NCBI GenBank assembly: GCA_033763475.1
Contig: JANRKM010000120.1
Span: 1-64,000 of the forward strand
From: Kofleriaceae bacterium
GTDB lineage: Bacteria; Myxococcota_A; Polyangia; Haliangiales; Haliangiaceae
Direction: 5' to 3'
DNA length: 64,000 nucleotides
Each line of letters begins with the position of its first letter. The stretch's first letter is position 1. The position numbers and the translations under genes were made by a program. Under the pieces are notes generated by a model. That model was not told the origin of the DNA. It saw only the letters and a program-made list of their open reading frames with translations, and ran no database searches. Below are positions 7,327 to 17,149 of the stretch, piece by piece.

Positions 7327-8634
7327 TCACGCTGCGAAGTAGGTGTCGAATAGTGCGCGCGCGTCGGCCGCGCCGGGCAGGCCGAGCGTGGGGCAGGCGA
7401 CCGCGGCGTGAAGGCCGGCGCGGAGCGCACCTTCGGCCTCGGTGCGGGCGGCATGGATCTCGGCGCGAGCACGCTCGTCGAGCGCGCTGAAGATCCACGC
7501 GTGGACATCCTCGGCGAGCTCGGCGTGGTTGCGTTCGTCGTCCGCGATCGCCACGAAGACGGGGCGTAGCTCGGGCGCGGCGCGCTCGGCCTGGAACGTC
7601 GCGGTCAGCGCGCCGAACGCTTCGCGCACGCAGCCCTCGATCGCGTTCTCACGTGCGATCTCATCGAGCGATCGGCACGGCAGCTCTGGAACGTCGATCG
7701 CCCGCGGCGCGCAGCCGAAGCGATGAGCGAGCTCTCCGAGATCTCGCGCGTGCCGGATCTCATCGCCCATCGCGAGGCGCGCGCGCCGGATCAGCTCCGC
7801 GGGGGCACCGTGATGCGCGAGCTCGCGCGCGAGCCGCTCGAACGCAGGGACGCTCGCGGCCTCGAGCTCGGCCATCTGCGCGAGCTCGGTCGCGACCTCG
7901 GAGCCCGCCAGCGCACCGTCGACGACGAGGCCTTCCGGGCGGCGCCCACAGTTATGGCGCTCGAACTGATGCGGATAGAGCGTCCAGGCGAGCGTGGTGT
8001 TCAAGACGGTGCCGTCGCCGCGCAGGACCACGGTCTCGATCAGCAGCTTGCGATCGGTCACGGTCACCGTCTGCGTGGGTGGACACGGCTGATTGCCGCG
8101 CCCCGAGGGACAGCAGGTCGGAGTGTACGAGGCCTGGCGCTGGACGCCGATCTCCTCGCGGACGATCGTGCAGCGCACGTTGTGGCTCGCGCGATCGAAC
8201 CGGCCTTCCGTGCCGCGCGGCCCGGGGTTCCCGTTGTAGTCGTCAAAGCCGTCGCCGACGGCGGTCTGCGCGCCGGTCGCCTTGCGCTTGTCGACCTTGG
8301 TGCGGCGCTTGTAGTCCTCGCAGAAGCCCCTTGGATCGGTGGCCGCGCGCGGGTCGAAGCCTGCGGGGGCCCCGGACCCTTGCGTGACGATCACCGTCGT
8401 CGATCCGGTACCCGTGGTCTGCGTGGTCTGCGTGGTCTGGGTTCCAGCGTCACGTGCCCACGGATCGGACGCCCCCGCGTCGGGGGGAAGCGCGGTCGTG
8501 GTGCTGGTGGTGCCCCCGCCGCTCGACGACGGCCCGGTCGGGGCCAACGCAGGTCCCTGCGCCGGCGTCGACCAGCAGCCGGTACCGGCCAGCACGAGCA
8601 TCACAGCGTCGACGATGCGGCGGCCCGCGCGCAT
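7327..8634 (-). CDS. Lipoprotein with C-terminal ferritin-like (four-helix, EXXH-type) domain; copy 1
   Basis: Signal peptide with lipobox (LAGTGCW), followed by a low-complexity T/Q/G-rich linker and Cys-rich segments (CCPSGRGNQPCPP). The C-terminal helical region has DEIRHA and DERNHAEL motifs typical of ferritin-like proteins. A near-identical nucleotide copy lies at 15574..16820. Confidence 0.6.
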   Translation of the reverse strand: MRAGRRIVDAVMLVLAGTGCWSTPAQGPALAPTGPSSSGGGTTSTTTALPPDAGASDPWARDAGTQTTQTTQTTGTGSTTVIVTQGSGAPAGFDPRAATDPRGFCEDYKRRTKVDKRKATGAQTAVGDGFDDYNGNPGPRGTEGRFDRASHNVRCTIVREEIGVQRQASYTPTCCPSGRGNQPCPPTQTVTVTDRKLLIETVVLRGDGTVLNTTLAWTLYPHQFERHNCGRRPEGLVVDGALAGSEVATELAQMAELEAASVPAFERLARELAHHGAPAELIRRARLAMGDEIRHARDLGELAHRFGCAPRAIDVPELPCRSLDEIARENAIEGCVREAFGALTATFQAERAAPELRPVFVAIADDERNHAELAEDVHAWIFSALDERARAEIHAARTEAEGALRAGLHAAVACPTLGLPGAADARALFDTYFAA

Positions 8635-8770
8635 CTAGGTGGTCGCCTCGAGCAGCATCCATCAGCAGGTATCACGGCGCGCAGTCCCGCCTCAAGACCA
8701 CCCATGGGAGGGACACGGCGGGCAACCTCGCAGCGCGTACCTCTCGTCGAAGACACGGCGAACACCTTCG
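7327..8770. repeat. Direct repeat copy 1 (~1.4 kb) of a segmental duplication; copy 2 is at 15574..16990
   Basis: Nucleotide stretches of 7441-7530 and 15660-15750 are near-identical by eye. The flanks downstream of each copy are also similar (ggtatcacgcgcgca..gcctcaag..gtacct(c/t)tcgtcg(a/g)aga(c/t)acggcg). Confidence 0.7.
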
Positions 8771-8787
8771 GGTTGCATAGAATGTTT
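8771..8787 (+). promoter_or_regulatory. Conserved upstream motif GGTTGCATAGAATGTTT (candidate promoter with TAGAAT -10) shared by the two tandem DxDGDG paralogs
   Basis: An identical 17-mer, preceded by the shared ACGGCGAACACC, sits about 25 nt upstream of both start codons (8813 and 10211). Confidence 0.35.
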
Positions 8788-8812
8788 TCGGCGGATGCGC
8801 GTCGGGACGGCG

Positions 8813-15461: not shown

Positions 15462-15573
15462 GCGCGCGAATCTTATCACGCGGAATGCGGACTCTTCGCG
15501 CGAGACAGGGGCGTCGCGTCGCTTACATGGCACCTTACGCTTCGCGAGTCGGGCAGCTTGGCTATAGAAGCGG

Positions 15574-16820
15574 TTACTGCTGGGCAACGACTATCATGGC
15601 GTTCGCCGCGATCTCATCGGGTGACGGCGTGCTCCGCAACTGACGCGCGGCTAGGGCCTCGGTGCGCGCAGCGTGGATCTCGGCGCGAGCACGCTCGTCG
15701 AGAACGCTGGTGATCCAGGCGTGGACATCCTCGGCGAGCTCGGCGTGGCTGCGTTCGTCCTCCGCGATCGCCGCGAAGACGGGGCGTAGCTCGGGCACGG
15801 CGCGCTCGGCCTGGAACGTCGCGGTCAGCGCGCCGAACGCCTCGCGCACGCAGCCCTCGATCGCGTTCTCACGTGCAATTTCCTCGAGCGATCGGCACGG
15901 CAGCGCCGGCGCGTCGATCGCCCGCGGCGCGCACCCGAATCGATTCGCGAGCGCTCCGAGGTCTCGCGCGTGCCGGATCTCATCGCCCATCGCGCAGCGC
16001 GCGCGCCGGATCAGCTCGGCGGGGGCACCGTGATGCTCGAGCTCGCGCGCGAGACGCTCGAACGCGGGAACGCTCGCCGCCTCGAGCTCGGCCATCCGCG
16101 CGAGCTCGGTCGCGACGTCGGAACCCGACAGCGCACCATCGACGACGAGGCCTTCCGGGCGACGCCCCCAGTTATGGCGCTCGAACTGATGCGGGTAGAG
16201 CTGCCAGGCAAGCCTGGAGCTCTTGACCGTTCCATCGCCATCGAGGACCGCGGTCTCGATCAGCAGCTTGCGATCGCTCACGGTGACGGTCTGCGGTGGG
16301 GGACACGGTTGATTGCCGCGCCCCGACGGACAGCAGGTCGGAGTGTACGTGGCCTGGCGCTGGACGCCGATCTCCTCGCGAACGATCGTGCAGCGCACCT
16401 GCGGCTCGCGGAATCGAACCGGCCTTCCGTGCCACGCGGCCCGATGTTCCCGCTGTGGTCGTCGAAGCCGCTGTTGACCGCGGACGGCGCGCCGGTCGCC
16501 TTGCGCTTGTCGACCTTGGTCCCGCGCTTGTAGTCCTCGCAAGAGCCCCTGGGGTCGGTGGCAGCGCGTGGGTCGAAGCCTGCGGAAGCCCCAGTCCCTT
16601 GCCTGATCACCGTCGTCGTGCCGGTACCCGTGGTCTGCGTGGTCTGCGTGGCACCATCAACTGCCCACGGGTCGCGCGCTGCGCCGTCCGGGCCGGCGTC
16701 GGTTGTGGTGCCGGTGGTGCCCTTGGTCGACGACGGCCCCGCCGGTGTCGGTGGCGACCAGCAGCCAGTCCCGGCGAGCACGAGCATCACAGCGTCGGCG
16801 ATGCGGCGACCAGCGCGCAT
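15574..16820 (-). pseudogene. Ferritin-like-domain lipoprotein, copy 2, disrupted by a 1-bp deletion (frameshift near 16400)
   Basis: Two overlapping ORFs (15574..16542 and 16278..16820) together are collinear with the 7327..8634 protein. The frames switch between RFDSAS and VRCTIV. Nucleotide comparison with copy 1 shows one missing base (cacaacgtg versus cgcaggtg). Confidence 0.5.
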
Positions 16821-17149
16821 TACGTGATCGCCTCGTCGAACACATCACGCAGTGTCATCCGGATCCCTCCACCATCCGCTGGTATCACCGCGCGCAACTC
16901 GGCCTCAAGGAACCTCCGGCGTGTACCTTTCGTCGGAGATACGGCGCATACCTCATGCGCGTCGCGCCATCGCGAGATGGCTACCCCGAGTGGCCACGAC
17001 GGCTGTGAGAGGGCGCCGGCAGTTGGTTGCGTGTAAGCCGAGTACGCGCATCCTCGCTCGGTGTGTGTAAACGATCGCTGCACGGGTGTCGCTTGACCTG
17101 ACGCTGTGTCGAGTGTCAACGTGCGACTGGCTTCGCCTCGGAGGGATCG

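Follow-up and report, generated by a model that had tools for sequence, protein, structure and literature searches.

The window analyzed was a 64-kb stretch of a Kofleriaceae (Myxococcota) metagenome-assembled genome (MAG) with SFX73 locus tags, situated on an 82-kb contig. It contains a direct repeat of 1.3 kb, each copy of which includes most of a gene for a ferritin-like lipoprotein (gene A, copies A1 and A2) together with the region upstream of it. This repeat, which probably arose by a lineage-specific duplication of gene A, is considered here along with a tandem pair of genes for secreted DxDGDG proteins (B1 and B2) that lies between the two copies. The features concerned, including open reading frames (ORFs), are the following:

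7435-8767 (1333 nt): repeat copy 1, formed by codons 1-400 of A1 and 133 nt of the A1-B1 intergenic region
15655-16953 (1299 nt): repeat copy 2, formed by the body of A2 and 133 nt upstream
7327-8634, minus strand: A1, intact gene for a ferritin-like lipoprotein of 435 residues (ORF and translation)
15574-16820, minus strand: A2, paralog of A1, split in two ORFs
8813-9988, plus strand: B1, intact gene for a secreted protein of 391 residues with two DxDGDG (FG-GAP-like) modules; alternative start at 8795
10211-11376, plus strand: B2, tandem paralog of B1, frameshifted
8751-8810, plus strand: segment upstream of B1, with the 17-nt box GGTTGCATAGAATGTTT and a -10-like TAGAAT at 8778-8783
10148-10207, plus strand: second copy of that segment, in front of B2, 83% identical to 8751-8810
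16955-17008, plus strand: ORF of 17 codons, MRVAPSRDGYPEWPRRL

Protein A1 is identical to the hypothetical protein SFX73_14765. In the NCBI annotation, B1 corresponds to SFX73_14770, B2 to SFX73_14775, and the C-terminal part of A2 to SFX73_14795.

When the window was compared to itself with blastn, 7435-8650 matched 15655-16835 in direct orientation with 86.1% identity over 1217 columns, 37 of them with gaps (1426 bits, E = 0), and the same repeat was recovered by repeat finding and MAFFT alignment. A kilobase-scale repeat at the DNA level had been proposed in an earlier reading of the letters alone (hereafter, the sequence-only reading), and the self-comparison bears it out: 86% identity is found between the DNA of the copies, and their similarity is thus not one seen only between the proteins. 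The homology extends upstream of the gene as far as 8767 and 16953, where the local alignment score was 67, compared to 20.3 ± 3.3 (maximum 33.5) in 500 shuffles; in this upstream part, copy 2 differs from copy 1 by one 28-nt insertion and one deletion of about 27 nt. To the left of 7435 and 15655, homology was absent, as 216 of 300 shuffles reached the same local alignment score, which leaves 108 nt at the end of A1 (7327-7434) and 81 nt at the end of A2 (15574-15654) as non-homologous. A unit occurring twice was therefore correctly recognized in the sequence-only reading, while its limits (7327-8770 and 15574-16990) have to be replaced by 7435-8767 and 15655-16953, because the ends at 7327, 15574 and 16990 were those of ORFs and not of the homology. 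The unit holds no demonstrable part of the divergent gene B, its coding start included. The copies are spaced by 8.2 kb, of which only 1.3 kb is repeated, and they diverge by 14% at the nucleotide level, with indels of 1, 3, 9, 3 and 18 nt.

Concerning the nature of gene A, the A1 protein is made up of a signal peptide with a nearly invariant Cys20, a disordered linker rich in Thr, Gly and Pro, a Cys-rich beta domain (residues 143-220) and a helical bundle (246-434). The signal peptide and the near-invariant Cys20 suggest that the family consists of lipoproteins. The AlphaFold2 (AF2) model of A1 had a mean predicted local distance difference test (pLDDT) score of 81.6, with helices 246-410 mostly above 90, and its Foldseek comparison to the PDB matched bacterioferritin 1nf6, aldehyde-deformylating oxygenase (ADO) 5ux2, MiaE 6zma and AurF, with probabilities of up to 1.0 and target template modeling (TM) scores of about 0.6, but with E-values of 0.03 or weaker. 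In an alignment of 34 family sequences, the putative ligands E258, D291-E292-x-x-H295, E329/E333/E338 and D366-E367-x-x-H370 were invariant. The bundle thus has the marks of the ferritin-like superfamily, namely a four-helix core, two E-x-x-H motifs and two further carboxylates, and the description of A as a ferritin-like gene, made from the letters, is upheld by the family alignment, the AF2 model and Foldseek. As a working description, the family may be regarded as one of exported diiron proteins, judging from the predicted fold and the conserved residues. It shares a C-terminal tail with the consensus C..LGLP....ALFDAYFA, in which G418 and P420 were invariant among the same 34 sequences, and which is present in A1.

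The A family fell outside every Pfam and NCBIfam model in profile scans. It is widespread in Myxococcota, with 247 protein matches and at least 478 loci confirmed among GTDB representatives, the genomes often carrying several copies, and its hosts include Kofleriaceae, Polyangiaceae, Nannocystis, Labilithrix, Corallococcus and Pendulispora. Compared to the diiron-carboxylate proteins of the ferritin-like superfamily (bacterioferritin, rubrerythrin, ADO, MiaE), A resembles them in its C-terminal bundle with the pattern E...ExxH...E...ExxH, invariant family-wide, and differs from them in that a lipoprotein signal, a disordered linker and a Cys-rich beta domain precede the bundle in the same polypeptide, export being unusual in that superfamily.

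The frameshift that the sequence-only reading had noticed in the second copy was confirmed. It consists of a single 1-nt deletion at about 16402-16404 (minus strand), where A1 reads GCGAGCCACAACGTGCGC and A2 reads GCGAGCCGCAGGTGCGC, and it splits A2 into the ORFs 16278-16820 and 15574-16542. The A2 frame runs to ...GRFDSAS and is resumed in another frame at ...QVRCTIV; insertion of one base at this point gives a full-length ORF with the terminal stop only. The annotated SFX73_14795 covers just the 274-residue C-terminal part. The A2 protein shares 337 of 413 aligned residues with A1 (82% identity) and keeps all the putative diiron ligands. On the other hand, it carries the change C229W in the conserved HNCGRRPEG motif, and 27 unrelated codons (15574-15654) stand in place of the conserved C-terminal tail of the family. 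As A1 keeps this tail and A2 does not, A1 can be taken as the parental form.

The rates of substitution indicate that A2 has not evolved as a dead gene. By the Nei-Gojobori method, the synonymous distance (dS) between A1 and A2 was 0.28 and the ratio of nonsynonymous to synonymous distances (omega) was 0.44 overall, with dS 0.32 and omega 0.43 in the N-terminal part, and dS 0.22 and omega 0.30 in the ferritin domain. Rates were assigned to branches with the closest homolog for which DNA was available (L001 10001-11293, encoding P0002, identical to the extent of 62% by BLASTP and 67% in the family alignment) as the outgroup. In this comparison, dS was 0.25 between A1 and A2 and 0.81-0.87 from either of them to the outgroup; the nonsynonymous distance (dN) of the A2 branch was 1.3-1.45 times that of A1, and omega was about 0.3 for A1 and about 0.35-0.48 for A2, if the synonymous rates are equal. 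Parsimony gave 21 derived residues in A2 and 11 in A1 (p = 0.11). An omega so much lower than 1 implies that purifying selection acted on A2 during most of its existence, although the conserved tail was missing, and that A2 would have been expressed and useful. A rough estimate of the age of the frameshift, obtained from 0.35 = 0.28(1-f) + f, is at most about one-tenth of the time since the duplication. So, either the frameshift inactivated A2 very recently or it is a consensus error of the MAG, and the decay of A2 is at most incipient.

The same synonymous distances are informative on the age of the repeat. The value for A1-A2 is about 30% of that to the nearest sampled relative, and the identity of A1 and A2 as proteins (82%) is to be compared to 62-63% by BLASTP, or 67% in the family alignment, for the nearest non-self A proteins. 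The duplication is thus younger than the split from all the sampled relatives, yet far from recent, and the recent amplification or contraction of the locus that had been suggested is contradicted by the dS of 0.25-0.28 and the 14% nucleotide divergence. Neither do the repeats look like good recombination substrates, as had been supposed: their longest perfect matches are of 43, 35, 34 and 33 nt, when about 34 nt would be expected for a uniform divergence of 14%. Exchange between sequences so diverged is possible but strongly suppressed. The identity profile follows the protein domains, being 88-96% within the ferritin domain and falling to 65-72% along the low-complexity linker, and, with identical runs near the expected length, there was no sign of gene conversion or recent exchange.

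Concerning the B genes, self-blastn aligned the B1 unit (8751-9979) to the B2 unit (10148-11370) with 73.7% nucleotide identity; the proteins are 64% identical, with dS 0.69 and omega 0.38. The B1/B2 pair is a separate, older duplication of 1.4 kb that starts at 8751. The sequence-only reading had described two intact tandem paralogs with a duplicated promoter. B1 is indeed intact and the upstream segment is duplicated, while B2 is not intact: owing to a 1-nt deletion near 11171-11183, some 70 conserved codons at its end (to the stop at 11376) are out of frame, and the actual ORF ends at 11293. After ...LKKLSEQPFKS, the B2 frame gives a tail rich in Arg and Ser, and the other frame encodes ...FEPVGEHDIPPFEPEDTLACDA...KDRIPAKYCTAGER, colinear with B1. 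Insertion of one base near 11171-11183 gives a B2 protein of 388 residues, and the 63 codons past the frameshift had, in the original frame, an omega of 0.47. In SFX73_14775, annotated with 360 residues, the C-terminal 40-odd residues are the wrong-frame tail. Considering A2 and B2 together, both have the frame disruption typical of pseudogenes, with conserved C-terminal parts out of frame, while neutral evolution (omega 0.35-0.48 in the A2 branch, 0.47 in the B2 tail) or a second stop or frameshift was not found in either. Programmed -1 frameshifting at the two deletions was discarded, as no slippery heptamer X XXY YYZ was seen at either site.

Against the Pfam FG-GAP model, with a cut-off of 22.1 bits, B2 scored 23.2 and B1 20.3 bits. 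A word-indexed search with B gave no homolog beyond B1 and B2 themselves, and an exhaustive profile search of 1.84 billion representatives recovered a small family, with P0123 at 6e-54 followed by P0124, P0125, P0127, P0129, P0131 and others, which excludes that B is a strict orphan or a de novo gene. Many further profile matches covered the DxDGDG motif only, in FG-GAP/VCBS proteins. This family, which is unannotated, is composed of secreted proteins with one or two modules of about 190 residues, and in each module a DxDGDG loop is accompanied by a conserved C-terminal segment that contains Cys (..GEHDxPxFxPxxTLxCDA..RRGAKV..). The remote homologs P0123-P0131 share the C-terminal segment that B2 has out of frame.

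The region between A1 and B1 is where the two duplications meet. They overlap by 17 nt only (8751-8767), which correspond to AGAYACGGCGMAYACCT. The 17-mer GGTTGCATAGAATGTTT is perfectly conserved between the upstream segments of B1 and B2, and the conserved segment is absent next to A2. Its 83% identity, compared to about 55% expected at neutral sites for a dS of 0.69, makes it probable that the segment is regulatory. No sigma-54 site (TGGCAC-N5-TTGCW, up to 2 mismatches) was found in 7-20 kb, and the window had fewer matches than shuffles; a sigma-54 promoter, which could be suggested by the presence of a sigma-54 activator gene between the repeats, was thus discarded. The overlap of the two duplications offers a cheap hypothesis for the location of the control regions of A and B: a copy would have survived only if it brought along its own side of a back-to-back control region.

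The claim that the second copy keeps a 17-codon remnant of the divergent gene could not be substantiated. The ORF 16955-17008 begins with ATGCGCGTCGCGCCA..., and beyond 8767 and 16953 only the 10-mer ATGCGCGTCG is shared (8795-8804 and 16955-16964), with nothing longer in local alignments of the flanks and with 56 of 300 shuffles scoring as well. In copy 1, the 10-mer corresponds to an ATG in frame with B1 and 18 nt ahead of its start, conserved also in B2. Fourteen of the 17 codons of the ORF are unrelated to B. It is conceivable that the match, located directly at the end of the homology, reflects a 27-nt deletion that removed the TTGCATAGAATG box.

The other genes between and around the repeats are these:

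6469-7278, minus strand: gene p269
11400-12392, plus strand: homocysteine S-methyltransferase-family gene (PF02574, 7.6e-37), single copy between the repeats
12395-13543, minus strand: beta-propeller lipoprotein of the ScyD/ScyE family (NF033206, 123.6 bits, cut-off 80), single copy
13695-15587, minus strand: activator of the enhancer-binding protein (EBP) type with FHA, sigma-54 AAA+ and HTH_8 domains (Pfam)
17150-19420, plus strand: DUF1588/1592-type gene

The Pfam and NCBIfam scans confirm what had been read from the letters on the identities of the methyltransferase, the ScyD-like propeller and the FHA-sigma54 activator. The true start of the activator is likely the ATG at 15461, and the region upstream of this gene abuts the truncated 3′ end of A2. 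On the other hand, the idea that the repeats frame an accessory block finds no support. The GC content was 0.65-0.69 across 6-18 kb, compared to a range of 0.64-0.73 in the whole window (about 68% overall), and that of third codon positions (GC3) was 0.82-0.86 for the genes of the locus. The scans for tRNA and Rfam families found nothing in the 64 kb, no transposase, integrase or other mobile-element domain was found by Pfam and NCBIfam in the genes of 6.4-20.7 kb, and, apart from the B1/B2 pair, the genes between the repeats are single-copy in the window by self-blastn. The marks of a genomic island or a composite element are thus missing: the flanking repeats are formed by a cellular lipoprotein gene, with no tRNA and no compositional shift.

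Synteny was analyzed by running tblastn with p269, p239, B1, the methyltransferase, the propeller, and the DUF1588 gene and its neighbor against 81 A-family loci. In none of these loci, from other Myxococcota, was a homolog of B, p269, the methyltransferase, the propeller or the DUF1588 gene found within 10 kb; only generic EBP paralogs were matched, in 3/81. So, conserved synteny was absent, A and B do not form a conserved module, and the intervening genes are simply resident neighbors, not an inserted block. A second A copy occurred within 20 kb in 1/81 loci. In a Kofleriaceae-like metagenome contig of 28.9 kb (JGI 3300056388), two A paralogs of 412 and 433 residues (P0015 and P0032) are convergent around a gene for 270 residues, which means that clustering of A paralogs occurs elsewhere, but is rare, as the GTDB loci indicate.

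It seems reasonable to interpret the locus as the outcome of a moderately old duplication, specific to this lineage, of a single gene whose two copies then diverged as paralogs usually do, and we give this interpretation a probability of about 0.7. A segment of about 1.3 kb, formed by the upstream region and codons 1-400 of A, would have been copied in direct orientation 8.2 kb away, to a position between the upstream region of the FHA-sigma54 activator and the DUF1588-type gene. Its 3′ breakpoint would lie inside the gene, so that A2 would have lost the conserved tail of 35 residues and would read 27 new codons into the flank. The simplest route would be a tandem duplication of about 8.2 kb, with the joint at 15654/15655, where the EBP upstream region meets codon 400 of A, followed by a deletion that removed almost everything in the second unit to the right of the position equivalent to 8767; a direct, one-step ectopic insertion could give the same end state. 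Several points weigh against this account. One genome cannot order the events, be it tandem duplication and deletion or insertion, and the ancestral arrangement was not encountered in any outgroup. The branch omegas assume equal synonymous rates in both copies and depend on a distant outgroup, with dS close to 0.8-0.9; gene conversion, if any, would make the duplication look younger than its actual age. The source being a MAG, the frameshifts may be consensus errors. Finally, we infer the division of the intergenic region into an A-side control region (8635-8767) and a B-side one (8751-8812), and neither a scan of 7.2-17.2 kb for sigma-70 consensus and terminators nor the sigma-54 scan gave a promoter-like site there.

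A different account of the two 1-nt deletions, in A2 near 16403 and in B2 near 11175, would be that both are assembly consensus errors, with A2 and B2 being intact genes and no decay at all. The finding of exactly one frameshift per gene and no other stop agrees with it, as do the selection of the out-of-frame parts in their original frame (omega 0.30 in the C-terminal part of A2, 0.47 in the B2 tail), the intact diiron ligands of A2 and the MAG source. However, neither deletion is in a homopolymer, both breaks are in the faster-evolving copy of the pair, as redundancy predicts, and A2 lacks also the conserved Cys and the conserved tail; a noisy GC3 frame survey of the 64 kb, which makes this a weak statement, gave no other obviously broken gene. 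We regard the error hypothesis as possible but rather unlikely, and the frameshifts of A2 and B2 as real with about two chances in three. A larger artefact, in which copy 2 would be a fragment of a related organism or a mis-joined contig end, could also be thought of in a MAG. It is extremely improbable, since copy 2 lies between unique genes on both sides in one 82-kb contig and has a GC3 of 0.83 like its neighbors, its 86% identity is far from strain-level variation, and its own indels and novel tail fit evolution in place.

As to the possibility that the repeats are active recombination substrates framing a recently amplified or loss-prone accessory block, as the sequence-only reading would have it, they are direct, kilobase-sized and contain several perfect matches of 30-43 nt, longer than the 25 nt or so usually quoted as the minimum for RecA-dependent exchange. 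Yet a divergence of 14%, a dS of 0.25 and a longest identical run near the uniform expectation do not fit with such activity, nor does a block of single-copy genes devoid of compositional difference, mobile-element genes, tRNA or structured RNA, and we consider it very unlikely. Even less credit can be given to a variant in which the repeats recombine at low frequency, so that the 8.2-kb segment (B genes, methyltransferase, propeller and activator) would be lost or duplicated again in part of the population, with a chimeric A left, and the 1-nt deletions would be real marks of relaxed selection. If this were true, the locus would act, slowly and at the level of the population, as an on/off switch for a module that contains a regulator and is on its way out.

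The duplication of gene A, as preferred here, can be compared to known cases. Local, lineage-specific gene duplication is the accepted mode of myxobacterial genome growth (PMC8538405). With the local duplications of Goldman et al. (2006) and Huntley et al., as they are summarized in that review, the present one shares the close paralogs, the large GC-rich genome and the selection on both copies, and the A duplication is younger than the split from the sampled relatives. The cases treated in that summary center on kinases, two-component systems and regulators, whereas here a ferritin-like lipoprotein and a rare FG-GAP-like protein are involved, and one of the copies, A2, is 3′-truncated with a new tail. 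With unstable tandem amplifications the locus shares the direct repeats flanking a block, and a tandem duplication would be the most likely first step. In contrast, unstable amplicons are formed by identical or near-identical units placed head to tail, while here only 1.3 of 8.2 kb is repeated, in copies that are 14% diverged and not arranged head to tail. So, it can be said that the locus is an ordinary lineage-specific duplication of the kind typical of myxobacterial genomes.

As one more lineage-specific paralog pair in a myxobacterial genome, the finding matters little beyond annotation, which is corrected for two genes, A2 (SFX73_14795) and B2 (SFX73_14775). It is worth noting that purifying selection can persist on a duplicate that is truncated at its 3′ end and has recruited a new C-terminus. 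Independently of the duplication, the putative exported ferritin-like diiron lipoprotein and the rare secreted DxDGDG protein, both uncharacterized, are the only part of real biological interest.

Other repeats were observed in the window. Two DsbA-like lipoprotein genes lie in tandem at 41974-42933 and 42956-43890 (minus strand), with a repeat (42004-42789 and 42989-43774) of 78% nucleotide identity. The upstream copy, 42956-43890, has an in-frame TGA at 43508-43510 (minus strand), at the position of the first Cys of the CxxC motif, and its WDFA-TGA-PYCQR aligns with FDFACPYCQR of the adjacent Cys paralog. A 7-bp stem (GAGGGUC/GACCCUC, loop AGUUC) starts 11 nt past the UGA, with an overall folding z-score of only -1.15. 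A family of DsbA-like selenoproteins is known, with members in Anaeromyxobacter among others (PMC1794560), and this gene is similar to them in the TGA at the first Cys of CxxC, the adjoining Cys paralog and the downstream hairpin. The difference is that its best 120 homologs were all full-length Cys forms, the UGA not being conserved; there was no tRNA-Sec in the 64-kb window and no Rfam match, the UGA hairpin included. From these features, the gene may be a candidate UxxC DsbA-like selenoprotein, or may carry a nonsense mutation in a redundant duplicate. An inverted pair of paralogs of about 420-430 residues, both apparently intact, occurs at 2796-4017 (minus strand) and 56834-58049 (plus strand), 53 kb apart, with 71.7% nucleotide identity. 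Lastly, a unit of about 99 nt is repeated in tandem over a short stretch at 37765-37993, within a coding region, with 75% identity.

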